Assembly (NCBI GenBank): GCA_004022145.1
Contig: RCNU01000002.1
DNA from: Paecilomyces variotii
Taxonomy: Eukaryota
Strand: one strand, 5' to 3'
DNA length: 64,000 bases
This document shows positions 24,555 through 47,286 of this stretch, in pieces. The notes below the pieces were generated by a model. It searched no databases, was not told the DNA's origin, and saw only the letters and a program-made list of their open reading frames with translations. The number at the start of each line of letters is the position of its first letter. Within the stretch, counting starts at the first letter, position 1. Made by a program: the position numbers and the translations under genes.

Positions 24555-27281
24555 TATATTATAATTCTGGTCTGTTTGTGTTTTCTATTACGGATTACTC
24601 AGTGGCGTTTCCTTCATAATTTGGTGATATCGAATACTCGTCTGATGGGCAAATGACTGTTTGGTTTGGAGGGAGTCAAGAACAAGTCTTTTGTACTTTT
24701 CTCTTTTTTCACGAAAGCCGGTTCTTGTAAAGTAGCCATATATCATGTAGCACGAAAAAAATCAGCATCTGTTTCTATAGTTTTTATTCCTCACCTGATA
24801 TATACGTGTAGTGACCATTAACTTGCTGTCTATTGCTGGAGATTGTGAAATTGAGGGGATCTTAGAGAAAGTTAAGCAAATAGGCACATTGATCGACTAA
24901 ACCGGCAAGTGGTTATGCTCCAGATTTTCCAGAGACTGATGAAACAGCATAAGTCCCTGAGAGGCGATCGTTGTTTGGAGTCGCACTGGGTTGTTTCAGC
25001 GCCGGGTAAACAAAAAGGCAAAAGAAACAAGCTCTTTCCTGCGACATTCCAACAGTATGTCCAGGTTCTGGAATACGCAAGCCTGGGAGATCCGGACCAT
25101 CCAACTACTATCCACCTTGATTCGACATCTTTACTTGTATATTATTACAGAGTCTATCAGTTCATGCTGTGGGTCTAAATTAAACGCGGACGATGGGCGG
25201 TTGATAATGGAAGAGCCCCACAGATGCGTCGACAGAGATAGAAAAAGTACGGAGTAGACTACAAAGAGTCTACACTAAAACCGAACCCTTGGACTTGGAG
25301 TCATTTTTACGTCCGGCGTCTCCACAGTGTTATTCAGACTTTTTTTTTTGGCATAGTTACCTAAAAATAGGGTGCATCTACTAGTTACTGCAGTGCTGCA
25401 CTAACTGTAAACCTCTGAGGGTCTAGCGCTCTACGTATTGGACCTGAATGATTCGCGAAATGTAACGTTATGGATTAGTCACGAAGGAAGTCTAGAGGAT
25501 GGAGAAATGAAGTAGACGTTACCATGAGATTTGCCAACTTGGAGTATGTTTACAGTGATCGAGGATCTCAAATTTCCATGTTTATCCAGGGGAAGAATGC
25601 GGTGTATGATCATCCAACGGGCTGAGTCGTATGGGACGAAGCTTGGGCCATTGTTCTCAGAAGCATAAACGATGAAATGTGATCGTCGAAATAGTTACAC
25701 AAAGTCTGCATAGATAGGGGATGTTCCCGGCTGTTAGACGACCCGTGGGGGTGGTCCAGTGAAGCCACCTGATTTTAGACACCTTCTAGAAGAAATCAGT
25801 TCAGCAAGGATCGTGACTACAGAGCAGGGATAAAGTGATGCTCCTGTTTCCGATGAACTGCGAACTACGCCGTGATCCACTGCTCGATCATCCATAAATA
25901 GCTACTCGACGGCAGACTAGTGAAGCTGATCCACAATATATCGCAGGACATAATTAGTAGTTGACCCTGCTTGTCGGTATTGTCCACGTCGTCCCTACAT
26001 AGGAGAGCGGGAAGTTCTTCGATCGTGGCTGAACTGAGGGGCCGATAGAAGATCCATCATAGGGCTAGTGTTGGACTTATGGCAGATTAGATGAACCCAA
26101 TTAGTGGTTCAACTGGCTAGTACGAATAAATTCTCCCAAAGAGGTTGGTCGCATCTTCCTCCTGATGGTGAAAGCCCACATGCGGTGTAGTCTAAATGCC
26201 ATGATGCATTGATAGCCTTTTAAAAGCATGACATTCCAATCCTAGAGTGTGGAGTATCCTTATTCTAGAGGGCGATTTACTTTTTAACGAAGGCACCGTA
26301 AAAAAGAGTAGCTGGAATAGAACCCCTGAACAAAAAGGATAGCGTGGAACTAGATATGCATGTTTCGAGGTAGGGCCAGGCAAGCGATAAGACAGTGTCC
26401 TTTTCTCATGAAGAAACATTTTGCGTAAGTTAGCCATGCATTGTATTTGTAATTAATACGCAGTGTATTGACTGAAGTTGTTCAACACGGCACATCGCGA
26501 TAGAATTTGCCGACACACGGTGGCGTAGTAGCTCGAGCTATCTTAGGAATATGGCAGCGCCATGACCTCACAGGGTCCTACACTATGATATTCCCTGTGA
26601 GGAGTATGGGGTAGATAGCGTACATCGATACAGAGGAAAAAAATTATATACAGAAAGCCCCCCTGAACGTGCCGTGGCGGATCAGCACAACGGACGAAAC
26701 GGACTCCTGCTTGTATCAACGCTTGTATTTGCCAGATTATCAATAATATAGATAGCTTCAAAGTGAAAACCTGCCGCCCTGTAGAATTCGAGCAAATGCT
26801 TTTGCCGCATAAGAACGACGGAAATTAAGAGATACGCGTTACCAGCCCCCAGGTATCTACGCATGAATCTACCAGGGTTAACGGAGATTGGGAACGTAAC
26901 ACAGACAACATTTGAGTCAATGCGTAGTCTCGCCGTGTCTTTTAGGCTGCTGCCTGTCCCTCCGCTTCCATCTACATAGGTATCCAGAAAATTCTGTGAA
27001 TCGATCGCTATTTGATACAGCGACTATCTATTCTAGTTCCCGTGTTTGGGCGGGTCGATCTTTCTACAGAGACATCCAGTCCTCGGTACCATCTAACCAA
27101 GATATACCTACAATGATGATCAAAACGCACAAAGAGAAGAAAAGATTTGTCATATTGCCTTGATGCAATAGCGAGCCATGTCCCAAACAGACTGTCGTAC
27201 TCGTATCGAAGATACAGGATTTACGTATTATTACCGCCCCTTATACCGATGTTTGAGGCGCCAAGTACGGTACGGTGGGTT

Positions 27282-27637
27282 GGTCGCGAGGTCGCGAGGC
27301 GGCGTCTCGCGAGGTGGCGAGATTTTTGTTACCAGTAGATTACTAGTAAATTACTATTTTATATTAGAATTATACTAATATATACTAATAAAGATTAAAA
27401 TCTAAAATTTTTAAATCTCGCGGGGTAGTAAATATAGGTAAATCTTATCTCGCGGGGTGGTAAGATTGTAATTGCTGTATTTTATACTAAATATTATTAG
27501 TTTTATTAGTAAAGTTTAATTACTATTAAAACAGCTTAGTTATAAATTACTATTATACCGCCCTATAAGACTATATAAATAACTATTAGATCTGTATTAA
27601 AATTAAGCAAATATAGGCTATTAATTTTAGCTAATCT
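27282..27637 (+). repeat. Left terminal inverted repeat of the large transposon
   Basis: GGTCGCGAGGTCGCGAGG...GCAAATATAGGCTATTAATTTT is the reverse complement of ~36034-36388, differing mostly by C>T/G>A transitions. Confidence 0.9.
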
Positions 27638-27806
27638 ACTAGTATATACTGGTAGATTTTAAAATCTATAGATACAAGAGATTAAATATTATTAAAGGCA
27701 AAAGATAAAAGAGAGTTAGTAAGTAATATCTCCTAGAATATACTAGGTATTACTAGTTACTAACTATAATAACTAATTAGAAATATTTAAGATAAATTAT
27801 AAACTT

Positions 27807-27815
27807 TTAAAATTA

Positions 27816-27857
<42 letters not shown>

Positions 27858-27866
27858 TAATTTTAA
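27807..27866. repeat. (TA)n microsatellite inside a perfect 60-bp AT palindrome
   Basis: TTAAAATTATAATT-(AT)16-AATTATAATTTTAA. Confidence 0.85.
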
Positions 27867-28669
27867 TTTAAATATTCTATTTTAATTTATTTTAATATAA
27901 ACTAAATATTACTAATATAACTATTAACTAATATATTTATATAGCTCAATCATTTTTTAGAGATATTATAATTTACTGAAATATAGTAGTTATTATTATA
28001 ATCTAGCAGTTAGGACCAGTAATTATTATAGTAAGCTCACGGGAAATAATTAGCCTGATAGAAGAGTTCCTATACTAAGCTTAGTAAGCTAAGGGTTTAT
28101 ATAAATAATACAAATATTTTAATAAGTAAAAAATTTAAATATACTAAAAAAACTTCTAAAACCTTTTTATCTTTAGATATTATTTTTCTTTAGCTATTAA
28201 TAGTCTTATTAAGACTATTATAGCTTTAGATCTATCTTAAAGACTCCTAAAAGTTATAAAATCTAATAATATTTTTAACTAGAATTAAAAAGATGATTAT
28301 TTAGTTTATTCTACTAAAACTCCTAATATCTTAGAGATATTAAATAAATTCAAGCAGAAGCCTTAGGATAAAGACTCTAATAATAAAGATTTTTTAAATA
28401 TAGTATATTAATTACTATTATATACTAATCTTTACTATAATAATGTTTATATTACTAATATTATATTATAATATTAGATTAATAACTAACCTACTACTAA
28501 TATATTTAGTAGAGAATTTAATAACTAATTATTAAATCTAGAGGAGTTATATCCAATCTCTACTAATAATTTATTGGAGATATTATTTTTTTCTAGATTA
28601 ACCAATATTAAACTAGGCATAAAACCGCTTTTTAATATTTTTAGTTAAGCTAAATACCTCTAATATTCT

Positions 28670-31600
28670 TAGATAATACTAGAATATTTTAGTACTCATC
28701 TTAAAGGTGTTGCTTATTATATAAATATTAATAACCTAATATAATCTATAATTAATAACTATTATAGTTAGGTAAATATTAATCTATATTAATAGCGGTT
28801 ATAAGAGTATTAATATATATTAGGTTTAATATAGTAAAGGTTTAAGAATAACTAGCAGCAGTAAGACGAAAGTAATTATATATATATTATTTCTTAATAA
28901 TACTGAATATATTATTAAGAAATAGCAATGTTCTAGTATTTATTGTTGTCTATATATATTAGAATATATTCAGACTCTTAATTATACTAAAGCTTCTAAA
29001 AGTATTTAGTTACAACTAGTATTTAATTAATATAACTAAGAAAATATTATTAATAACTAAACAGATCAGTAATAATTAAAAGAAACTAGCAATTAATTCT
29101 ATAATTCTGGGATTTACTAATAAGACTATAGATATCTTAATTCCTGCTATAATAAAGGCTTAAAACTTAGATATAATTATATAAAGGTAAGTACTAATTT
29201 TAATTAGTATAATCTAATATATTAGTAATATAATTACTACTAGGACTTAATACTAATAATAAATCTTATTAGGATCTATACTGGCTTAGGTATAACTAAT
29301 AATTCCTATCTAATAATGCACAGCATTATTTCCAGTATCTTCTAAGAACACTAAACTTTAACTATATTTACTTGTATAAGTTATATAATTTATAAACTAG
29401 TAATTCTAATCCTACCAATACTATTAGTTATACTAGTATCTCTACTAATACTACTTTAATAATAAACCTATAAATCTACAGTTTAGTTAAATTAGTATAA
29501 GTTTATAGTAAATATTATAGTAAAGAAAATTTTTAATCCCTATTAAAATTAACTGGATATAATTGCTAATATTAAGTACTATTATATTACTAGCTTATTA
29601 TAGCGTATTTAGTCCGATTCAAACAGTTCCATATAATGTTCAATTTTTATATATCACACCTAAAGACTATTAGCAAGTACTATTTATACTGTTTATTAGT
29701 TTTAGAACTTATTAATATCTACCACCTCCTATAGTAAAGGTACCCCATAATATCTAGAATAATATTACTAAAATTATTTAAAAAACTAATACTCAGGGGC
29801 TTACTATTAGTATATTTTAAGATATATTAATAACCCCTAATAATTACTAATAAAATATACTATATACTAACAACTATTAATACTAGGTTAATTTATATAA
29901 AATAATAATCTCTAACAATACCTAAAAAAGAATAATATAACTAGGCTTTCTTAGATCTACCCAGCTTTAAACAATTAGGATATTATATATTAGATAATAT
30001 ACAAAGAAAAGCTATTAAGGAATTTATTTAGCGAGAGCTATAATAGTAAGTATAAGCTATAATTATTAATATATACTAGTAGATATTAATATATCTTATA
30101 ATATAGCAGTTCTCTTTTAGTTCCTAATAAAAACCTAAAATTTACAAAGTTATAAATATATTTGTGATATATATAATAATAGGGTAAATATTTATATTAT
30201 TTGCTTTTCTTAAGAATAATCAGTTGCTTTTAATAAATAATATTCTTTTTAAGTTAATATAACTTATAAACGCACTAATAATAGCTTTAATAAAGTTATT
30301 TTTATAATTATACCAGAAATAGTTAGTAATAATATATACTATTATATACTAATTATTACTAAGTATACTTAATACTAACTAAGCCTATTTATTACTTTAG
30401 CAGTTATCCTTATTTAAGTTTTTATAAATAAAGACTTAATAATAATATATATAAAGCTATTTAAAAAGATTTTCTCTTTTTTAGCTGCTATTAGTAATAG
30501 TAGTAGCTACTAGTTCAACTAATAGCATATTAATAGCTCCAGGATATAAACAATAATCACTAATATATATTATAAATAAGCTGCTAATAAGTATTATAAT
30601 AATTGGTTTTAGCAATATATATACTAGTATAGTACTAATATTTACTAGGCCTTAGTTAATACTTATATAGTATTAATAATACCTGATCTTAGCAAGAGTA
30701 TATAATATATACTACTATATTCTATTTAATTCACTATTTCTGAGATATACATTAAAAATATCGGAGCTTTAATATATACTAGCTTATATATTAGTTAGTT
30801 TCAGAAATAACTAAAAGCAACTATAATTAAATTTTATAGACTTTATATAATTATAATAACTGGGATATCTAAATATAGGTTAAATATAAGGAGATTCTTT
30901 AGATCCTATCTGGTCTAAACGCTAATTACTCTTAAATGCCTTTAATTATATTTAATACCTACTAAAAGAATTTAAATGCAGTTGAAGCAATATATTATCG
31001 GGACTAAGTCTTGACTAATATTAGAATTTTATTACTTAATGCTATTATTTAATAGGTAATATAACCTATTAGATAAAACTATTACTAATTAGGTCTATAG
31101 AACATAAGATATTAATAACTAAGCTATTTATAGAATTAACTAGTATCTTAAAACTAGTGTAAGACCTGCTTTAAATTTATCTATATCTCTAAGGCATGCT
31201 GCATATTCAGAATTAACTAGTATAAGCTACACTACTAATATCAACTGGTAAGTAATAAAACCTATTATATGGTTAATTATATAGAGACTATTATTATATA
31301 TAAAATACTAATAAAATATAATTATATCTGGTATTGCTAGCCTAATTAATCTTATAGATAGCCTAGACCCTCCAGTGGCAACTCAGGCTATTTAATCTAT
31401 ATTAAATAGATTCAACTCTAGTAGTATTACTAATAAAAAAAAGCAAATTTAGCAGGTTATAACTATAGACCCTATTATATCGCCTATACCTAACTAGAAA
31501 AGATCTAGAAAATTAGTAAATAAGAACTTAATACTAATAGTAACTAGAACTACTAGACCTACTGATACTTAGCTTTAAGAGATTACCCTCTTTAGAGACT

Positions 31601-31800
31601 AGTAGTCAGTTAAAAAATATTAGGGTACCTAGTAATATTATAGCTTATACTAATAAACCAGCTACTACTAATAATACTAATATAATTAATAATAATAATC
31701 TAGTATTTAATAGAGAGCTTACCGCTCTTTAAAATAATATTAATTGCCAGATATTAGAACTTTAAAAGAAGTATAATAAGATATAAGCAAGGATAATAGA
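28670..31800 (+). pseudogene. RIP-inactivated, intron-containing MULE-type DDE transposase (boundaries approximate)
   Basis: Reversing C>T/G>A changes: 30241 YSF*VNITYKRT...NKVI becomes SFQVDMTYKRT...NEVI; ~30511-30585 becomes QFNWQHIDGSGIQTMITDMCHKQAA; 30711 TTIFYLIHYF* becomes IFCLIHYFR (CxxH); ~30903-31000 ILSGLNANYS*MP...NAVEA. The order D...D...CxxH...E matches Mutator-type transposases. Confidence 0.7.
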
Positions 31801-32005
31801 ATTTAGTTTCAAGTTTTGTCATTTAGTATTACTAAAAGATATTAGTAAGTTAAATATTATTAGTTAATACTAATATATTAGTCTATTAAAAAGAGATATA
31901 TTATAAAATCAGTTTATTAAACTAGAACTACTAATATAAACTATACTAGATTACTAGTTACTAGAAAACTAGATAGTATTAAATTCTAAGTCTGAATTGC
32001 AACTA

Positions 32006-34128
32006 CTGGACCTAATTATCTAATATATAGTCCTACCTAATATATAATTTTTCTTAAGGAATTTAGAATTTTAAAATATAAATATCTTTATAATTAGTAG
32101 ATTAAATATTTAAATATTTAAATAAGATATTCTAAACCCTTAAAAATATAATATATATAATTTTTTATAAAAAATATGATATTAAAATAATTAAAATCTA
32201 TTATTATATTAATAATATTTAAAAATTATTTATTTATTTAATCTTTAATAAATTAATTATTTTTATTTTATTTTATTAATTAATATATTTAAATAATTTT
32301 AAACTTAGTTATTTAATATATAATTTTATTTACACTTTTACTAAAATTTTAAAAAATATTTAAATATAAATATTTATTAATAAATAAATTAAATTATTCA
32401 AATATTTACAGAAATAAAATTATTAGTTTTATCTTTAAAGACTTTATAATATAAAATAGAATTTTTTAGAGATATAAATATTTTAAGATTAAATTATATA
32501 TCTTTTTATAATTAACATAAAAAAATTAATTTTAATAGATAATATATTAATTAAAAGAAATTATTAATAATTGTTTGAAAGTAGAGAGCTTTATATATTT
32601 TAACAGATATTTTAATATTATAATAATTTCGATACAAATAAAGCTTAGAAAGATATTTTAAATTATTTATAACTATATTATATATATTATTAAAATTAAT
32701 AAAATATAGGATTTTAAATAATAAAAAAAATTCTAAACTCTATCTTTGATATTAAAAAAAATAAATAAATAATTTAAAAGTAAGCTTAAAATTAAATTAA
32801 AATTAATTTTTTTAACAATAATATAAACTTAAAAAAGAAAAATAATATAAATTTTAACTTTATTAAATCTATTATATAATTAATATATATTCTTTATAAA
32901 TTAAAACTTAAAGAAATTAATTATAATTATTAAATAATAATAATATTAAATAATATTTTAAATTAATTAAAAAGGAATATATTAAAGAATTATTTTAATA
33001 TTAAATCTATTAAATCGATTTATAATAGTTTTAATAATTAAATTTAAATATTATATTATTTTACAGTTTATTCTAATTATTTTATTTATTTTATTTAAAT
33101 ATATTATATATTAGAAAAAATTTATTTTTTTTTAAAAAATTTTAAAATATTAAATTAAACCTTTATTATAATAAAGTTTATTTAAGAATTTAATTAAAAT
33201 AAATTAATTATTTTAATAATAATTAATATAAGATTAAAATCTTTAATTTATTTATTAATTTAAAATATATAACTTTTAATTTAATTATTAATAAAAATTA
33301 GAATTTATTTTTAAAATTTAAAAAATAGTTTTTAATTATTCTTTAATAATAGACTTTATAAAAAATATTATTAATTTAAGAATTAATAATATATTTAATA
33401 TTATTTTAAAACTATTTATTAATAATTTTTTAATATTATTAATTTAAAAGTTATTTTTATATATTAATTTATAATATTAATACTTTTAATATAATATAAT
33501 ATATATTTTTATTATTTAATTATAATAATATTTAACTTCTTTTAAAAACTATAATAAATTATAATATAATATTTAAATTTAAAATATTAATAATATTATA
33601 AAATATAATATTATTATATTTTAAAGTTTAAAGATAAAAAAAGAAGTTTTTCTTATAATTATTTTATATTTTTTCTTATATATAAATTATTTTATAAGTT
33701 AAAAATATTAAAAATTACTTTAAATTTAAGCTAAAAAATAAATTAAAATTTTATTAAAAAACTTAATTAAATAATAAAAGAATTAAGAATTAAATAATTT
33801 TAAAATAATATTAAATAAGTTTATTAAAATTATAAAAAGATTTATAAATATTTTATTTATTTAAAAATTATAAAAATATTAATTTATTAAAAATTAAAAT
33901 AAAAAAAATTTAAATATTATTAAATATAATAATAGATTTAATTATTTTAATATTATTATTATTCTATAAAAATTATATATATTCTTATTTTTAGGGATTT
34001 AGAATACTCTACTTAAATATCTAATTATTTACTCTACTAATTATTAAGATATTTATATTTTAAAGTTTTTAATTCCTTAGGGAAAATTATATATTAGGTA
34101 GGACTATATACTAGATAATTAGGTCTAG
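32006..34128. mobile_element. Nested ~2.1 kb TIR element flanked by TA (Tc1/mariner-pogo-like), extremely RIP-depleted
   Basis: TA|CTGGACCTAATTATCTAATATATAGTCCTACC at 32004 and GGTAGGACTATATACTAGATAATTAGGTCTAG|TA ending 34130. ~170-bp inverted repeats. The interior is almost free of C/G. Confidence 0.75.
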
Positions 34129-34249
34129 TAATAATAGAGATATTTTAAGCAGTATATTAGTAAATTTATTAGCTACTAAAAGAGACCAGTATTAATCTAT
34201 TATAGTCTACCTAATTACCTTTATAAAAAACTAGTATTAACTAGTACTA

Positions 34250-35460
34250 ACTAATATTAAGCAGCACTAACCTATTGCCCAGTTATAATTAATTGCTTAT
34301 ACCTTCACCTTTCCTTTGTTTTTATCCTTAGTATTATTAGCCCCACTAATAGTATTAGTAATATTACTCTTATTAATAATAATAGGATTATTTTAAATCT
34401 TATAAGGTAAGTAATAGCTATTAGTAAGATTAGTAACAATTAATATATCTTAAAATATTAATACTCATTAGGAATAACTGTAATTGATCTTATTACAGGC
34501 CTTATATTTCTTATTTATATATAATTTATAAGGACTAGTTATATTAGTAAATACTAATACTAACTAAGGAAATAATATATACTAGTAGAACTATTATATA
34601 CCTAATAATTATCTTAGGGGATTTTAATCTAATAAAGTTATTAGAGGAATCCTCTCCTTTAGAATTAGTTTCTACTATTTTAAGTTTACTACTACTATTA
34701 AATACTAGTATTATAAAGTATATTTTAATAACTATACTTACTAATTACCTTTACCCTTTTTTTTATCTAAAACTCTCAGGCCCTTAAAAAGATTAATATA
34801 TTTAAATCCCTATTAGTACTACCAGTTAATATTAGTAGAAAATTAACTAAATAAGTATACTTATAATATAAGATATCTTAATATATTTATAAATAATAGA
34901 ACCTAAACCCTAAATTAACTAGTTTATTCTAGTAGGACCAGTTAGTATTAATACTAACTGGGCAATTATATAACCAATTAATATATATAGCTTATAGATA
35001 TAATATAAATAATATTTTATATACTTCAGTATCTCCTAGTAGCTATTAGTATTTTTAAATATAATCAATAAGGATTAGACATAAATACTTATAATCTTAC
35101 CTTTATATAGCTACTTTTTCTTCTTATAATAGGCATAATTATAAATTTTTTTCTTCCTATAATTAATCAGAATAGTACTATTAATAAATACTAATATATA
35201 ATAGATATATATGATTTTGCTGCTCTTAGACAGGGTAGCCTCCTAGGCATTAGAATTATTAGTTAAACTAATAGTATTAATAATATAACTGCCGCCAGTA
35301 GGGCTGGTAGGAGCAGTATAATTAATTATATTAATAAGATTAGTGGTAATAGTAATAATACTAGTAATATCATTACTAGCATTAGTAATAGTATTACCAG
35401 TTAGACTAGTAGGGGTCGCTATTATACTAGTTAGTAGACTGTATCTACCTAATCTACTAA
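34250..35460 (-). pseudogene. RIP-degraded second ORF of the large transposon, convergent with the transposase, apparently Cys-rich (boundaries approximate)
   Basis: Minus-strand frame 35239-35102 reads ATLSKSSKIIYIYYILVFINSTILINYRKKKIYNYAYYKKKK*LYK, followed by a GTAAG donor at 35100. TAT>TGT reversion yields CxxC...C...CAYC...C. Confidence 0.4.
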
Positions 35461-35878
35461 TCGCTATCTGTTAGTAATTAGTACTTACTAAACATAACTA
35501 ATATAACTAGAAATATATAAAAAATAGTAAGAAATAGGAGTAACCAATATTAGCTTTTAAGCCTAATTATTAATCGCAGTCGCAACTGCCAAATCTAACT
35601 ATTACTTTCCTATTCCCTATAAGCTCAAACTAAGGGATATAAGGTTTAAAAGAGATAGAATTAGAATAATAATAAACTCAGTATATCTAGACACTTTTAT
35701 TAGAGATTAAAAACAAGATTAACTAGGACTTACCTATCTGAAGATAATTAATAAAGGGAAGAAATCAAAAGGGATTAATTAAATATGATTTTTTTTTATA
35801 GGCTGAGTAAATAATATACTAGCCTAATTTAGAAATATAAATATCTACCAGAGTAAATCTAATATTGCCTAGTCTACT

Positions 35879-35976
35879 AGTCAGATATAGCCTATAAATA
35901 TACCAGTTATATATAGCCTGCCACCAGTATACTAGTTAGATATAGCCCACTACTAAAATATAAGTCAGATATTGCC
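35879..35976 (+). repeat. Four 14-bp subterminal direct repeats (consensus AGTCAGATATAGCC)
   Basis: Copies at 35879, 35905, 35934 and 35963, just inside the right TIR. Confidence 0.7.
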
Positions 35977-36033
35977 TGGTATATTAACTGCGACTATCTT
36001 ATACTAGTATATTTTAGTAGACTAGTTTACTAA

Positions 36034-36388: not shown

Positions 36389-38365
36389 CATATAACCAAG
36401 TACGGTACAGTACATACCGCCTGGTAATTCGGAACTTCAACCCTCAAACATCGTTTGCTTCACTAGCCAACTAGACCTTCCATTCTACTTCCTACTGTCT
36501 CACCATTTCTACAACCACTGTTAGATGCCACCTATACTGGTGGATTAGAATGACTTCACAGCCAAGGGAGAATATACATCATTGCCGCCGTCTCTGATCG
36601 CTAGGGGTAACCAGTATGCAATGATACAAGCACCCTGACTGATGTCTTCAGAACGCCTGTTGAAACAAGGCAGTTCCCGCATAGTCGTTTACAGCAGAGA
36701 GACTATACCTACATGGGACTTACCGATGCACTCCCTGAGATCCTTGAGCACTGGCCATTATACTGACGCCGGTGTCTTGAATCCCGAATCTCCCTGCTGC
36801 GCCTCGACAACTCTACCTTTATCGGCTCCACGGTCTGCGGCGGAATTTCCTAGCCTAGCAAGAACGAAGTGTCTGTGGGTAAATAAAGGAGGAAAGCAAG
36901 TGTACTGCTCAATCAGCTGCAGAAGAACAGCGGATCGGTAGTGGCTCTGCGATACTTTCTCCGTATCTACTAATATAGACCAGGATCATTATATTATGCT
37001 AATTGCGGACAGCTACTGGACGGTCTCAGCCGGATTTCCCTCCCAATGGATGATCCAACGGTCAGAGCACACCGAATATCCGCGGTTGCATTTCAACGGA
37101 GATTTAGGGCTATCTAACAGCCGTTGGGCCCTGACTATAACGACTGTACCGAGTCCAGTAAGGTCATGTTGAACCATCTGGTCATAGCCTTGACCATGTT
37201 CCAGTCACCCGCTGGTTTGTCAGAATTGGAGCCCAATATGCCGAGGACAGTACTCCGAACTAGGCAGATTCCTACTCTCGCTGCTACGCGATCTGATGCT
37301 AGAGAGCCAGGGGAATAATCCACACTCAATGCAAGCCTTGTTTCCCATTCAACCCTTGACTTTATGCTCTTTCCTGTTCCTGCCGGACATCTACGCATAC
37401 TATGCTACGGCCCACATTATCCTTCAGGGTAACCAGTGGAGACTACCTTCACATCATCCTGTATTTGTGAACTGTGTCTGCATTCTGATTGCACCCTTGG
37501 AACAAGACCCTGACGAAAACCTAACATTTCCACCAATCTCTCGTCGTCATTGAATTCATAAGCTTTGCACTTTTGCAACCTGGGGCTGCCTCCCTGACTA
37601 GCTCCTTCTAACTTCCTTCTAGAATCCTTCCCTTTTTTACGGAGGCGATCTAGGACTGTGAAGCTAGTTGGGGGCTCCATGGCATCCGGAGTGAATTGCG
37701 CCCCGGCTATCTAGCTGTCCGCTCCCCACGCTGCACATAGGGGGGTGTATGATGGCGAATCCGATTGTTCATCCCTCAATCAGTCTTCCCTTTTTAGGCC
37801 GCATAAGGTTCTCACATAGGAGTTGGATGATCAATCTATCTTCTGTCCATTTTTAGCTAACGACGAATAGCAGTTCCCAGGCTTCTAGAACCCATCCAAG
37901 CCGTTGCGGGCCCTGCTTGACAAGCGATCCCAGGTCCCCGATCACTCCAGGATAGTTATTTGCCACGCTTCCCTTCATGCTGCTTTTCTCAATGACGACT
38001 TGCTCTTGTGCTAATATAATATCTACGACTCTCTGCTCTTTTGTTGCTTCTGAACCAACTCTCTACAGTTCCCCGAAGGTCTAATCTTAACGATATACGA
38101 TACGTGTCAGTGACAGCGATTGGCTAAGGCGGGGGTTAGTGTCGGCTTTGACGTGCGGTATTGCTACTGTATTATTTAGCCATTCCACCCTCATCGGTTC
38201 GAGCGCAGACTGAAAGTCAAAACACACGCGATACACTTCACCCACATCGACGGGAGAAGACCTCCTAGTCCCGCGCGACTTGAATTTTTTCTTCCTTTCT
38301 TCTTTTTTTTCGATATAACTGTTTGGCAGCCTGCCAGAGCTTTTTGGCTCTAGCGGCGCCGATGC

Positions 38366-39448
38366 ATGACTGCGACACTGGCGGATCCATACCGTGATTA
38401 CCAGATCGATTATTCCACTCATGAACACTGTAAAGCAGAAGAGCAGCAAGGCCTACTGGTTTATCAGACAACTCAACCGCAGGTGCTGCACCACGGTGCA
38501 CGGGCGGATGTCCCTTTCCCCTCTGGCAGTGCGCATCATTCTGTGTTTCAGCAACATCATCAGCATGGAACACCTACTGCGCTGCCACATGCGGGGAGCC
38601 ATCCCATTGCCCAAGATATTCACCAACCGGTGCTGCTCACTTCGCATCAAATGGTATCACCGCAGATGCAGTCGCACTATGGCTCTGCTCCCCTCCATGT
38701 TCCCTTCTCCGCACCGCGTGGGACAAAGAGGACTCGGCCGGAGGATGATGGAGAGGGTGACCATGACGACCGCCATCTCGGACTCCATCTTCCAATGCTC
38801 CCTCCCGAAGCTCATACAGAAGGGGCGCATCCGTCAGAATTACTTCTTTCCTCTCACGACGACTCGTCTTCCCATCGTCGAACGTCTCTCCACGCTTTTG
38901 TGCCTCCTCCGCCACCTCCAGCGCTCTTACATCATCAGCAACACCATCATCACCGGCTTCCTTCACAGGTCGTCTCCCATCAATCTCAGCATCAGGGGAC
39001 CGATATGACATCTCCCTCGCTACCATCCGGTCCGCCGAGTGTAGTAGGCCAAGCTGGAATGCCTGATCCTGCACCACGACCGCGCGGACCGAAACTCAAA
39101 TTTACTCCGGAGGAGGATGCGCTATTGGTAGAGTTGAAGGAGAATAAGAATCTGACATGGAAACAAATTGCGGACTTCTTCCCAGGGCGGACAAGTGGCA
39201 CGCTTCAGGTCCGATACTGCACCAAGTTAAAAGCTAAGGATACAGTCTGGACAGATGACATGGTCAGATTCCCCTCTTGGTATCTTGGGATGATTCGAAA
39301 ACCTGCGGGTTCTAACAGTCACTAATAGGTACACCGTTTACGAAATGCGATCCAAGAATATGAGAACGACCGGTGGCGGTTGATAGCGGCCAAAGTTGGT
39401 AACGGTTTTACTCCTGCTGCTTGCCGAGAAAAGGCAACTGAGCTGTGA
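38366..39448 (+). CDS. Myb/SANT-like DNA-binding protein with His/Gln/Pro-rich N-terminus (Myb gene A)
   Basis: KFTPEEDALLVELKENKNLTWKQIADFFPGRTSGTLQVRY, then intron 39263-39328 and a second repeat WTDDM|VHRLRNAIQEYENDRWRLIAAKVGNGFTPAACREKATEL*. Confidence 0.9.
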
Positions 39449-42901: not shown

Positions 42902-44780
42902 CTAACGACCGAAGAAGCGAAGTTCGATGTATCGTAATGGTGGGTATACGATGGCGGCCCAGGAAAAACCGACGTAGTTGCCCATCTGAGATTCATTCAA
43001 AGTTAATATAATCTTTTCGAGATAAGGTAGTGAGGGGTTGAGGAGACTTACATCGGCACCGTATTCTCCTACAAGACCGGCAATAGGTCCTACGTACCAG
43101 ACCTGTGCCATGCAGAGGACAGCACCGACCCAGCCGACAACGAATGCGATAAAGGCGGCAATTCCAATGGGGAGCTTGGATGGATCGTTCCAAGCGGCCC
43201 AGTTATAGCCAGCACGGCGTCGGAAGATGTAACGTTCCTCGAGGAGGATGGCGAACCAGATGGCAACCCAGTATCCCATGAGGGCGAGGAAATTAGTGAA
43301 TATCTCGGATAGGTGACCACGACCAGCGAGGGCACAAACAGTATAAATGATAACGCCGAATGTGTTCCAGATGACTCGCGGAACCTTCTCTGCGTACCGG
43401 CCAAGGATCTGGAAGTCAATACTGGAGGAGTATGTTGGTGCGATGGTGTTCGCGACCAAGCCTAGTGCAACAACCACGGAGCAGAACTTGCCAAAGTTGT
43501 GAAGAGGGCCGAACCCTTCGACGATGAGAGCGCCGGCGCCTGTATTCCATGCCGCGGCATATTCAGGATGAGTAGCGATACCGCTTGCTAGTCCAATTCC
43601 GACAAGGAAAGCCAATGTGAAGGACGTCATCAGGCCCAACAGCGATAGAATAAAAAGGGTTGGCTTGGAAGTGCGCGTGGGATAGTAGACGAAGAAGTCT
43701 GCTGCTAAGGGACTGTATGTAATAGCAGCACTCAAGCAAATTGAGAAGAACGATAGTCTGCAAGGAAAGGCCTTATCAGAAGAGGAATCCCCGGTCTTCA
43801 AGGTCTCAGCTTACCTATTGCCAATAAGAGTACGGCGATCTCCTTGGGAAGGCGCTGACAGGTCGAATTTCTTCGCTGATGTGCCGTATAAAATGGGCAC
43901 CACTATCAGTTGAGGCAGAAACGCGAAACTTTGTATAGTTAGTAAGAAGATCCGATACAATAGTGACTGCGTCCTTACCGTTCATAGTAGTGGAAGATCT
44001 GGATACCAAATGTGGCTACTGCCCAACTGATGACGGCCACAATTACAATTCCTGTGGCACTGTTAGACAAGGATCGCAGCGCTGATCATGACTTCTGGTG
44101 ACTTACCAACAGCAACCGACATGCTGCCTCCAGGCGAAACTGCAGATAGGATCTGTCCTCCAACCACGCAATCGATCATACAGTATCCAATCATTTGAAT
44201 GAGATTCAGTAAGACCACAATCTTGCTTGGCCACCAACCCATGGAATATCTCCCAAACACCTGCATTAACATTAGACCATCTTCTTCTTGCCTGGTTTAG
44301 CAAACATTTAGGACTGCCAACCATTGTTCGATTTCCAGAGACTGGACCCCACGTGGCGCACCATGAAGCCACCAAAGATCCCACAAGCGCTCCAAGCACT
44401 GCACAAAGAGCTGAGTCAAGGAAGCTCAGATAATAGACCGCAGGACCAAGCATGCCCAGAGTGATATTATTGGCGGCCAGATTAATCGAAACCCACAGCA
44501 AGAACGACTGCAGGTAAGGCAGCCATGACAATTGGATACGTTCACTCTCCTCTACACGCTGTATCCCTCGAGCTTCGAGATTGTAACTAACGAGCTGCTT
44601 TTCAAAACTTCTCACGGCTGCCCCGATGCGCCCTGGGAGAGTCCAGCCATGCTGTCGCGAATCATAATCCGGAACACGATCGTCCACTAGGATTTCTCCA
44701 GGCTGATCTGAGCAGGCGATACCGAGCTCTGTCTTGTCATGGACAGCCGGTAGGGCGGGACGCCCATCTTTTCCTTCCAT
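42902..44780 (-). CDS. NCS1 / purine-cytosine permease (Fcy2/Tpn1-like) transporter; probable thiamine or thiamine-precursor transporter
   Basis: LEARGIQRV; GPVSGNRTM|VFGRYSMGWWPSK; AADFFVYYP; FTNFLALMGYW; LCMAQVWYVGPIA; YPPLRYIELRFFGR*. Introns 44261-44321, 44052-44106, 43929-43978, 43758-43814, 42986-43051. The substrate is inferred from the upstream TPP riboswitch. The true start may be an upstream ATG at 45216. Confidence 0.88.
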
Positions 44781-44940
44781 TTCTATAAACCTCCAGTCAG
44801 TATCGTCCCGCACGGGCGCAATGTGTGAGTCGACGAGACCGCCAGGACAGGACCCAGATTGAAAGAACAGGTCCAGTCTCAGTAGCTAGGGATCACAGGT
44901 GAATGCAAAGCAAAGGGTGGGGGCAGAAAAAGGAAAGCAC

Positions 44941-45161
44941 GCATGAGTCCTTTCGCTGGAATTATCCAGATCAAGTTCAACCGTATAATCTCAGAACGAC
45001 AATGAGCACCAGCTGCGCAACCTTCGGGACAAGCAATTGACTTCCTTTTGCTATAGACGACTTGCATATTTCACTGCGACACAGAATATGTCACACAGCA
45101 GAGGCACAAGCGAGTCCGAAGTTGCGCAGAGAGCCTACTTGTCGAACACCGGTCTTCATGC
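44941..45161 (-). ncRNA. TPP (THI-box) riboswitch aptamer in the 5' intron of the NCS1 permease
   Basis: Minus strand reads GCATGAAGACCGGTGTTCGACAA...TTGTCGTTCTGAGATTATACGGTTGAACTTGATCTGGATAATTCCAGCGAAAGGACTCATGC. P1 GCATGA/TCATGC, P2 ACCG/CGGT, J3/2 CTGAGA, P4/P5 core CTTGATCTGGATAATTCCAGCGAAAG. Confidence 0.93.
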
Positions 45162-46285
45162 AGGCACGTTACCTAGATACCTTGATCACGGACAAATCCA
45201 CACTACTCGTCTTCATAATGGCTCTCTTTTGTAGACTGATGAAATAGGAGAGGAGAGAGGTACAGAATAGAGAGAGATTTTGTTCACTCCCCGTCCGCAG
45301 AAATGGGAGGTTTCCAACGTTGCAGTGGCGGTCGTTTTGATCGCGGGGGAGCTCTTTGGCGCGAAGGAAATATCTTCCTGAATATCAGTCTCTGAACACA
45401 GATAGTTTTGCACGAACAAGCACAGACTCTTGAATTCTGCTGACTGACATTCGATGATATTTCCACTACTCGCTTCACCGTGGAGGCCCGTTGCTGCTGG
45501 AAATTTCTCCAAGGCCAAGGCCCAGACCATAGATACGAAAGTGGCGGGTGGGGAAGCGATTTTTTAACGGGGAACTTTTGATGAGAACCGTGCTCCCTCC
45601 CCACTCGTTGCGATTGTGAATCATCATGATCCTGTTGATATAGGCACAAATTCCTACTATAGTCGGTTCGCTCCAGTAAGTACGGCGGCAATACACGCGG
45701 ATTAATATATGGCTTTAAGTAGCCAGCGTGCGCGTCGCTACAGCTGCACGTGCACTTGATAAGGAGATCGCAGGGCATCATACATGGGCCAAGCTCGAGG
45801 TTTTTTTAAAGAGCCGGTCTAGATGTCATTGACAAAGATAGAAGAATGATCTGATTTGCATAGACATGAGTCTTCCTGAGATCCAGACAATTGCCACTAG
45901 AAATTTCGTAGAAAAAAAAAGTATCTGGGCAAGCTATGAAAGAGATGCATCCATTCATTACCCTGCTCGATGCCCCGATAAGAGTCCTTCCCCGCGAACC
46001 ATGGCAAGACGACGAAAAAGAACGAGACGGGATCCAGTGAATGGGTGACCCAGGGTATAGTCCATCGAATGCTCAAGGTCCAAGTACCGTTGCTGCTGAA
46101 ATCCAGATAAAAAAGTGCAGAAGCCACCAACTCCCAAAAGAGCCCATAAACCCGCGACTCCTGACCGTCACTGTTAGAAACCTGTGTCGCCAAAGAACAG
46201 TAAGAGCCGTAGCTGACTGCCAGTGGTGCAGAATATGTTGCTAATGAAAATGCATCCAATTCATCACGTCGTCAATTTCGTCAAT

Positions 46286-47286
46286 TTAGAGGTTTTTGAA
46301 ATGCTCTTTTGCGTACTGCTCGCAGGCCTTCTCGAACGGGTCAGCATGCGGGACTATATAAGTGCCCTCGCAGACACCATGAATGGGCCAGCTAAATACC
46401 TTCGCGGGTTTTCCAACTTTCTGTCCAATGACCTTCCACTTATTCGCCTCGTACTCTTTGATTGCCTCGCGTAGCGCTACCGACTGAAGAAAGGATTAGA
46501 AGGATGCGACAGTCAGTCGTGCGGGCGCAGTAAACATACCTCATCTTCGGCGAACTCGGCATAATGCATGTCCTGCCAGCAGGGATCAGTAAGAGCAATT
46601 GAGTCTTAAGTCTGCACGCAGGTGCTCACCTTGTACCAGTGCTTTTTCACACTTCCCTCGGTTCGAGTAGGGAATGTCTAGAGACGGCAACGTCAGTAAA
46701 GGCCAGCCCGGAGCGCATATCGAGACAGACTTTGGCAATTTCGCTCCAGCTCTTCCCAGCGTCGCGCATTGTCTTCAAACGTTGCTCTTCCTCGGCCGTC
46801 CACGGAGTGTTGGTCCGTCCCTTCTTCTTCCCTGCCGACTCTGGCGTAGCCGTAGCCGTGGCGGGATCCGTCACAGCGTCTGCTCTGCTAGCCGGGACAG
46901 GCGGCGCAGCCATGGTCGTTGTTGCGCCTGATGAGGGTGACGAGCGGCGTTTGCGTGGATTGGAAGGTGACACCTGGGTTGGCTGGGCTGGTAACGTCGG
47001 AACACCCTCAAAGGCAGCTGATCCGGGGAAAGCGGGCGCTTGCTGCTGGTTCAGAGATCGGGAAGGAGAGCTAGTTGTTGTCGACGTCTTGATCCGCTTG
47101 GAGGTAGGAGGAGACCTGGGACATGGACGACACGGTCAGCAAAGCGATGAAAGCTCACCCATCGCGGTGGAAGCGCGATAGCACATGACACAGGAACCTG
47201 GAAGCGACCGCGATATCTTCCCTGGATCGGACGGCAGTCCGACCAGAGCAACGGGACTTGGCAGTACAAGACAGCACTCACGACAT
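46286..47286 (-). CDS. Small two-repeat Myb/SANT-like protein (Myb gene B)
   Basis: Exons 47286-47282, 47115-46731, 46677-46630, 46572-46540, 46483-46400, 46327-46286 give MSSPPTSKRIK...PWTAEEEQRLKTMRDAGKSWSEIAK|TFPTRTEGSVKKHWYK|DMHYAEFAEDE|SVALREAIKEYEANKWKVIGQKVGKPAK|ACEQYAKEHFKNL*. Confidence 0.88.

Follow-up and report, generated by a model that had tools for sequence, protein, structure and literature searches.

Alternative 5' splice sites at a candidate TPP riboswitch in the leader of an NCS1 permease gene of Paecilomyces variotii

A 64,000-nucleotide stretch of Paecilomyces variotii DNA (GenBank assembly GCA_004022145.1, contig RCNU01000002.1; hereafter the window) raises the question of whether a transporter gene on its minus strand is controlled by a riboswitch for thiamine pyrophosphate (TPP), and by what route such control would act. 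An earlier note, made from the letters of the window, had placed a TPP aptamer at 44941-45161, upstream of the start codon of a purine-cytosine-permease-family gene. We consider it probable, at roughly 0.8, that a working TPP riboswitch is present, one belonging to the fungal 'nucleoside-transporter' class (TPPsw-NUC), situated in the 5'-leader intron of an Fcy/Tpn1-like NCS1 gene and working in a manner like that of NMT1. The parts of the aptamer, from its outer helix inwards, are the following.

44941-45161, minus strand: complete TPP-type aptamer, bounded by the two strands of P1 (RF00059, class covariance model R1, fold)
45156-45161, minus strand: P1 5' strand GCAUGA, pairing with 44941-44946 in the minimum-energy fold
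44941-44946, minus strand: P1 3' strand UCAUGC (fold; P1 check in relatives)
45150-45153, minus strand: P2 5' strand ACCG, pairing with 44980-44983
44980-44983, minus strand: P2 3' strand CGGU (annotated alignment, pair counts)
44995-45146, minus strand: P3 arm, unusually long at ~150 nt (fold; basal pairs covary in relatives)
44989-44994, minus strand: J3/2 CUGAGA, the pyrimidine-sensor motif (invariant columns C178 and G180-A183 in alignment A2)
44950-44975, minus strand: P4-P5-L5, CUUGAUCUGGAUAAUUCCAGCGAAAG, the pyrophosphate-sensor arm (RF00059, A2, pair counts)

The architecture is that of a TPP riboswitch, with P1 closing the P2-P3 and P4-P5 arms, and the elements singled out in the earlier note (P1, P2, CUGAGA and CUUGAUCUGGAUAAUUCCAGCGAAAG) all lie where it had put them. 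As far as sequence can tell, the window aptamer also has the conserved ligand-contact motifs of TPP riboswitches; the pyrophosphate arm contains two G residues 18 positions apart and UAAU in its loop, both of which are conserved in fungal TPP aptamers (PMC5882874). An unconstrained fold of 44935-45167 recovers P1, P2, the long P3, an unpaired CUGAGA and P4/P5 at -76.7 kcal/mol (z = -2.15, with 5 of 200 shuffles as good). The covariance search with Rfam RF00059, proposed in the earlier note as a check, returns a credible match when 44700-45400 (701 nt) is reported by E-value, with E = 1.1e-6 (~1e-4 if scaled linearly to the whole window), but its 41.5 bits fall under the gathering score of 54.3. 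It is the sole credible match there, the other three having E-values of at least 2. The alignment is clean in its 3' half and mis-threaded in its 5' half, where a false P1/P2 is placed inside the real P3, because P3 (45146-44995) is ~150 nt long; the shortfall against the gathering score is due to this insert together with a P2 specific to the class. The class covariance model R1, in whose training alignment the window is one row, gives 99.8 bits at 44934-45169, its only match in the window.

In this class P2 is CCG/CGG, as against GGG/CCC in the Rfam consensus, 0-3 extra bases precede the P1 3' strand, and the length of P3 varies. The class-own P2 and the extra nucleotide before the P1 3' strand, together with simulations that report weaker TPP binding (PMC8786325), could be taken to mean that specificity has shifted to free thiamine, thiamine monophosphate (TMP) or a hydroxymethylpyrimidine (HMP) derivative, matching the substrate of the permease and not the end product of the pathway. 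Both sensor arms are nevertheless canonical, including the G-G spacing of 18 and the UAAU loop, and we regard a changed ligand as highly improbable.

How the aptamer could act on the gene is seen from its position among splice sites and start codons, listed here with a slash at each splice border.

45262-45263, minus strand: distal 5' splice site S1, TCT/GTACCT (joint 44782/45264 in run X2)
45179-45180, minus strand: proximal 5' splice site S2, GAUCAAG/GUAUCU (joint 44782/45181 in runs X1 and X2)
45171-45172, minus strand: third candidate donor UAG/GUAACG (from the sequence, with a similar AG/GTAA in some relatives)
45213-45215, minus strand: upstream ATG between S1 and S2 (sequence; conserved column in alignment A4)
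44796-44800, minus strand: branch-point-like CUGAC, its A 14 nt from the acceptor (recognised by sequence only)
44783-44784, minus strand: common 3' splice site UAUAG/AA AUG (both joints end at 44782)
45374-45427, minus strand: small far-leader intron of 54 nt, GT..AG (spliced in X1, joint 45373/45428; retained in X2)

Contigs of X1 and X2, two runs labelled 'RNA?', show zero differences from the window and lack five short GT..AG introns within one 1.87-kb piece; they are therefore RNA. A joint from S2, present in both runs, skips 44783-45180 (398 nt), and a joint from S1, in X2 only and thus in one of the two spliced runs, skips 44783-45263 (481 nt) to the same acceptor. Alternative 5' splice sites are accordingly used in RNA (joints 44782/45181 and 44782/45264), in agreement with the alternative splicing that the earlier note had invoked. 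Also present are its CTGAC (44800-44796) and, with two bases between it and the ATG at 44780, its acceptor AG (44784-44783). Its range of GT donors, 45172-45206, holds in part: 45180 is used in both spliced runs, and 45172 has no joint. Nor is there a joint in the contigs for a possible acceptor near 44886, and from neither absence do we draw an inference. Missing from the earlier note were the distal donor at 45263 and the upstream ATG at 45215, which together make a mechanism readable. Unspliced contigs cross the aptamer in X1 (44755-45210) and X2 (44755-45076), and a contiguous X2 contig, 45264-45457, retains the far-leader intron. The metatranscriptome runs X5 and X7 yield unspliced contigs only, ~1.5% different from the window (43 other letters in 2914 bases), and are uninformative on splicing; within 44941-45161 they have one listed difference, at 45048 in P3, too little for covariation.

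The forms differ in the upstream open reading frames (uORFs) that they carry. From ATG 45215, the S2 form has a uORF of 43 codons that extends over the main ATG in a different frame. The unspliced form contains four upstream ATGs, and downstream of 45373 the leader of the S1 form is free of them. The locus thus has two alternative 5' splice sites, one acceptor and a uORF start between the two donors, the arrangement of NMT1 and of Type I riboswitches. A further ATG lies at 45450; with both introns removed, the uORF that it would start has its stop directly against the main ATG.

One further element could connect the aptamer to the choice of donor.

45181-45200, minus strand: exon stretch ending at S2, putative switching (anti-aptamer) sequence, complementary to aptamer 44957-44975

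These 20 exon bases (45200-45181) end exactly at S2 and are complementary to the P4-P5-L5 strand. RNAduplex predicts -28.4 kcal/mol for the duplex of the S2 region with the aptamer; shuffles of the S2 region give -17.2 +/- 3.2, and 3 of 500 do as well. Among 39-nt segments scanned across 45400-45165, the top four each overlap S2, and the S1 region reaches -8.9 kcal/mol. On these models an aptamer strand is complementary to the proximal donor region, as it is at NMT1. The unconstrained fold of 45225-44930 has its minimum, -94.7 kcal/mol, in this alternative structure, with 45200-45181 paired to 44957-44975 and the first intron bases, 45179-45175, paired to the P1 5' strand. Enforcing the aptamer on the same stretch gives -88.7 kcal/mol, a cost of 6 kcal/mol, which is plausibly of a size that ligand binding could pay.

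We infer both TPP binding and the direction of the switch, which would work like that of NMT1. At low TPP, 45200-45181 would pair with the P4/P5 strand, and the opening bases of the intron would pair with the 5' strand of P1; it is proposed that S2 would therefore be hidden and the aptamer unfolded; splicing would run from S1 (45263) to the acceptor at 44783, the upstream ATG at 45215 would be removed, and the permease would be translated. At high TPP the ligand would lock the aptamer, and S2 would be freed and used. The mRNA would then keep the 43-codon uORF across the main ATG, or else the whole intron with its four upstream ATGs, and little permease would be made.

A functional switch might instead act mainly by blocking removal of the whole intron, and not through the choice between S1 and S2; intron retention, occlusion of the branch site or the 3' splice site, or nonsense-mediated decay could all serve as routes. 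Such a block would suit the unspliced contigs that cross the aptamer in both spliced runs, given the four upstream ATGs of a retained intron, and occlusion of a branch site is described for algae in PMC5997356. It would leave the conserved upstream ATG between the two donors without a role under pure retention, however, and the conserved complementarity aims at the S2 donor and not at the branch site or acceptor. We therefore consider a pure intron block unlikely and prefer control by the choice between S1 and S2.

Features of the locus recur in relatives of the gene. Scanning metagenome contigs of the JGI with a 12-protein alignment gave 80 loci (L001-L080), with 53-68% identity in the best segment, and 46 of them match a strict regular expression for the core motifs of the aptamer, immediately upstream and on the strand of the gene. 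From the 41 distinct sequences found, 31 were aligned with the window (alignment A2), leaving out near-duplicates and a spurious site at L005; P1, P2, the base of P3, P4 and P5 were annotated from the window row, and R1 was built on this alignment and run on the 80 loci and the window. It matches 64 of the 80 loci, always on the gene strand and upstream of the protein match, although R1 had been trained on 31 of the 64, and many of the remaining loci nearly duplicate sequences from that training. Sixty loci score at least 61 bits, and four are weak (L057 and L058 at 39.9 bits, L065 and L066 at 19.7 bits). Seven of the 16 loci with no R1 match (L007, L032, L034, L037, L062, L078 and L080) lack upstream sequence. 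P3 is 15-110 nt long in the metagenome relatives, against ~150 nt in the window.

In A2, with its 32 sequences, every ligand-contact motif has columns that are either invariant or conserved to at least 90%, and P3 and P5 keep their pairing through sequence change. Over 46 distinct rows, 79.8% of cells are standard pairs, against 72.5% in shuffles, and none of 500 shuffles reaches the observed value, though kinship among the sequences inflates such tests; when the partner columns are slid, pairing falls to 25-48%. Both sides change in 13 of 23 pairs, among them the whole set of six at the base of P3 and two in P5 (one P5 pair is U-A in 28 sequences and A-U in 16), and P2 is 92.9% paired over the 46 distinct sequences. 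P1 is 56% paired in the model-fitted alignment A3, where its 3' strand is misaligned because the 0-3 linker bases vary. RNAduplex gives it 5 bp or more in 42 of the 44 distinct sequences checked, with a near-invariant GCAUG/CAUGC as its core (L061 and L065 were left out of this check, and L054 gave no 3' tail).

Conservation extends beyond the aptamer. In an alignment of ~140 nt upstream of P1 from the window and 24 loci (A4, 25 sequences), the order is a GTAC(G/A) donor, ATG, a semi-conserved GAGTAGC, a near-invariant GATCAAG/GTA donor, sometimes AG/GTAA, and the GCATG of P1; in the column of the upstream ATG, T76 and G77 are invariant and A75 is at least 90% conserved. Duplexes of the upstream 160 nt (or as much as was available) with the 3' half of the aptamer range from -24.5 to -45.8 kcal/mol in 35 sequences, values that come without a shuffle control, and in most of the 35 the predicted duplex ends at the GATCAAG/GTA donor. 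The conserved uORF sequence (ATG...GAGTAGC...GATCAAG) may be kept as RNA, for an extended anti-aptamer helix, and not for its peptide.

We also note that the P1 core, GCAUG/CAUGC, is near-invariant in sequence and not just in pairing, with AUG on both P1 strands. A helix would not require conservation of this degree, and a further role is suggested, such as to guarantee upstream AUGs in the unspliced RNA or to pair with the GUAUC of the proximal donor, as in the alternative fold of 45225-44930.

The same relatives bear on whether the element is a decaying relic, an aptamer that neither binds TPP nor regulates, with the alternative splice sites being noise of a leader intron. Loss of function has been raised for the A. 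oryzae TPPsw-NUC aptamer on the basis of simulated binding energies and extra nucleotides (PMC8786325). The Rfam score is below gathering both in the window and in 30 of the 31 class-model-positive relatives scanned (L044 reaches it, at 56.1 bits), and R1 finds no aptamer in nine of the 73 evaluable relatives, each of the nine having at least 969 nt upstream (L001-L004, L006, L069, L070, L076 and L079). At L061:2672-2820 the core motifs are degraded, with CGGAGA for CUGAGA and CCAAAG for CCAGCG, and this is a candidate for an aptamer that has decayed. Against decay of the class stand the (near-)invariant ligand-contact motifs of the 32 aligned sequences and the two-sided changes that preserve pairing in P3 and P5; the upstream ATG and the GATCAAG/GTA donor, which are not part of the aptamer, are conserved as well, and a relic would not keep such features. 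We give a relic a very small chance.

With the missing aptamers and the low Rfam score just described belong several other points that weigh against a functional switch. At its gathering score Rfam has no match in the whole 64-kb window. The alignment used for pair counts was fitted to the model and leans towards it. Each splice joint is one contig per run, with a shorter side of 30 letters (S1) or 28 letters (S2), and the contigs, from runs whose growth conditions are not given, cannot rank the isoforms. If transcription starts beyond 45450, an upstream ATG would precede all forms, and it is therefore not certain that the S1 form is uORF-free. PMC8786325 models the A. oryzae member and states that experimental validation is lacking; its simulations suggest that TPP is bound more weakly and that function may have been lost, for which it cites extra nucleotides. 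The C that it notes as extra before the P1 3' strand is also present in the window aptamer. For the TPPsw-NUC class our literature search turned up neither an experimental test nor data on ligand binding or on the response to thiamine.

Of the better-known systems that resemble this one, the TPP riboswitches of Neurospora crassa NMT1 (and THI4) were reportedly the work of Cheah et al. in 2007, the riboswitch of the thiamine transporter NCU01977 that of Li and Breaker in 2013, and the placing of CytX under THI-element regulation that of Rodionov et al. in 2002. TPP riboswitches on the present transporter group are already in print, and the window locus probably adds a member to a known class; by naming only NMT1, THI4 and NCU01977 as known, the earlier note overstated its novelty, since PMC5997356, PMC5882874, PMC8786325 and PMC11683625 all cover the class. 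Donovan 2018 (PMC5997356) describes TPP riboswitches in Tpn1/Fcy21-like genes of Aspergillus nidulans (AN4526.2), Stagonospora nodorum and Xylona heveae, and credits further ones to Moldovan et al. 2018. Mukherjee 2018 (PMC5882874) describes a 'nucleoside transporter' class in Ascomycota, regulated via uORFs or internal stops, and TPPsw-NUC is one of five fungal TPP riboswitch groups in PMC11683625. The literature search returned no report for Paecilomyces variotii, which may be listed in supplementary species tables that lay outside the search.

The window locus shares with TPPsw-NUC the placement in a leader intron, the uORF-based alternative splicing (Type I of PMC5882874) and the extra C before the P1 3' strand. 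It probably shares the gene family too, judged by the source names of its relatives and their 72-83% identity; its P3 is longer than those of the metagenome relatives. Like N. crassa NMT1 (and THI4) it has an aptamer in a 5'-UTR intron and two 5' splice sites flanking the uORF start or starts, and, as at NMT1, a strand of the ligand-free aptamer would pair with the proximal donor, whose use yields a uORF-bearing, poorly translated mRNA (PMC5997356, PMC5882874). NMT1 differs in that the gene there is for a biosynthetic enzyme and here for a transporter, with TPP dependence here putative. N. crassa NCU01977 and Candida DUR31 are also transporter genes repressed by a TPP riboswitch through the choice of 5' splice site, but they encode an SSS/solute-carrier-5 protein, the aptamer is in an intron inside the coding sequence, and the switch employs long-distance pairing (~500 nt) and premature stops instead of a uORF (same two papers). 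In bacteria CytX (TIGR02358, 'putative hydroxymethylpyrimidine transporter') is likewise an NCS1-superfamily permease under a TPP riboswitch; its expression platform is bacterial and does not involve splicing, and the similarity of the proteins is at the superfamily level, not that of orthologs.

The gene under this putative control has the following structure.

42902-44780, minus strand: permease coding region, 529 codons (five internal joints in RNA contigs, translation)
44780-44322, 44260-44107, 44051-43979, 43928-43815, 43757-43052 and 42985-42902 (stop included), minus strand: permease coding exons

With the exons joined by script, the frame opened by ATG 44780 runs to a stop at 42904-42902. 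The predicted permease is identical in 527 of 529 residues to a database protein, P0002 ('hypothetical protein [Paecilomyces variotii]'), which matches Pfam PF02133 (Transp_cyt_pur; cytosine/purines, uracil, thiamine, allantoin) over residues 90-493 with 47.8 bits against a gathering score of 23.5; together with the covariance matches this bears out the earlier placing of a TPP-type aptamer in the 5'-leader intron of an NCS1 permease gene. Its best NCBIfam match is the NCS1 subfamily model TIGR00800, at 157 bits and under the cut-off of 353, and the only other one, in second place, is CytX TIGR02358, whose 42.6 bits against a cut-off of 309.85 are below the level of an equivalog. Over a 235-residue query the identity is 72-83% to relatives from Aspergillus, Penicillium, Talaromyces, Rasamsonia and Thermoascus, whose source names are 'nucleoside transporter', 'purine-cytosine permease' and, once, 'vitamin B6 transporter'; some of the closest named relatives come from lichen-forming fungi. 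A search of the PDB by sequence, with the single protein or with a 12-sequence profile, found no relative of the permease, the lone match (E 0.41) being noise.

What the permease carries can be approached from its regulation alone, from which the earlier note had proposed import of thiamine or of a precursor such as HMP. Regulation by TPP argues for a role in the supply of vitamin B1, and on that ground we favour HMP or thiamine itself as the substrate. In shape, HMP is close to cytosine and pyridoxine, the known substrates of Fcy/Tpn1 relatives. From these family substrates and the weak similarity to CytX, HMP-type pyrimidines are at least as plausible as thiamine. A bolder and rather doubtful proposal is that the permease is a fungal importer of HMP or of a degradation product (AmMP), and not of thiamine, with the uORF sequence conserved as RNA; if true, the HMP-importing permease would be the eukaryotic counterpart of bacterial CytX.

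Several observations concern the surroundings of the gene and the same RNA contigs. The X1 splice of 45374-45427 joins the permease leader to a 3-kb, much deeper contig running upstream past 45800, which points either to read-through or to a permease transcript that begins within the 3' part of the upstream minus-strand gene. Contigs of a second locus (X2, X5 and X7; up to 17 kb) match 44947-44987 over 41 bases with 2 differences and then diverge on both sides; there is therefore at least one further TPP-type aptamer in the same organism or organisms, and a gene for thiamine biosynthesis is its presumed site. The scan of neighbouring open reading frames shows no thiamine gene and gives no clue to the substrate; its only finds are Myb-like domains, which flank the permease gene at 46647-47135 (minus strand; weak, 16.9 bits and below gathering) and 38354-39325 (plus strand; PF13921, 46.7 bits). 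Farther away, at 27000-36000, is an AT-rich block of ~9 kb with a G+C content of 5-25% per kb and no N, within otherwise ~50% G+C, which looks like a repeat degraded by repeat-induced point mutation (RIP) or another gene-poor AT isochore.

TPPsw-NUC is the least studied group of fungal TPP riboswitches, and one paper suggests that it may not function (PMC8786325). The two splice forms in RNA, a predicted ground state that hides the proximal donor, and deep conservation of aptamer, upstream ATG and donor, with covariation, argue that the class is a working switch. Because one of the 31 class aptamers scanned passes the Rfam gathering score and that of the window fails it, automated annotation will miss nearly all of the class. 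If the switch works, this NCS1 permease, whose relatives at 53-83% identity extend from the Eurotiales to environmental metagenomes, would be a strong candidate for the salvage of vitamin B1 or its precursors, which, if true, would be relevant to how vitamins are exchanged in symbioses and food fermentations and to proposals for targeting fungal TPP riboswitches.

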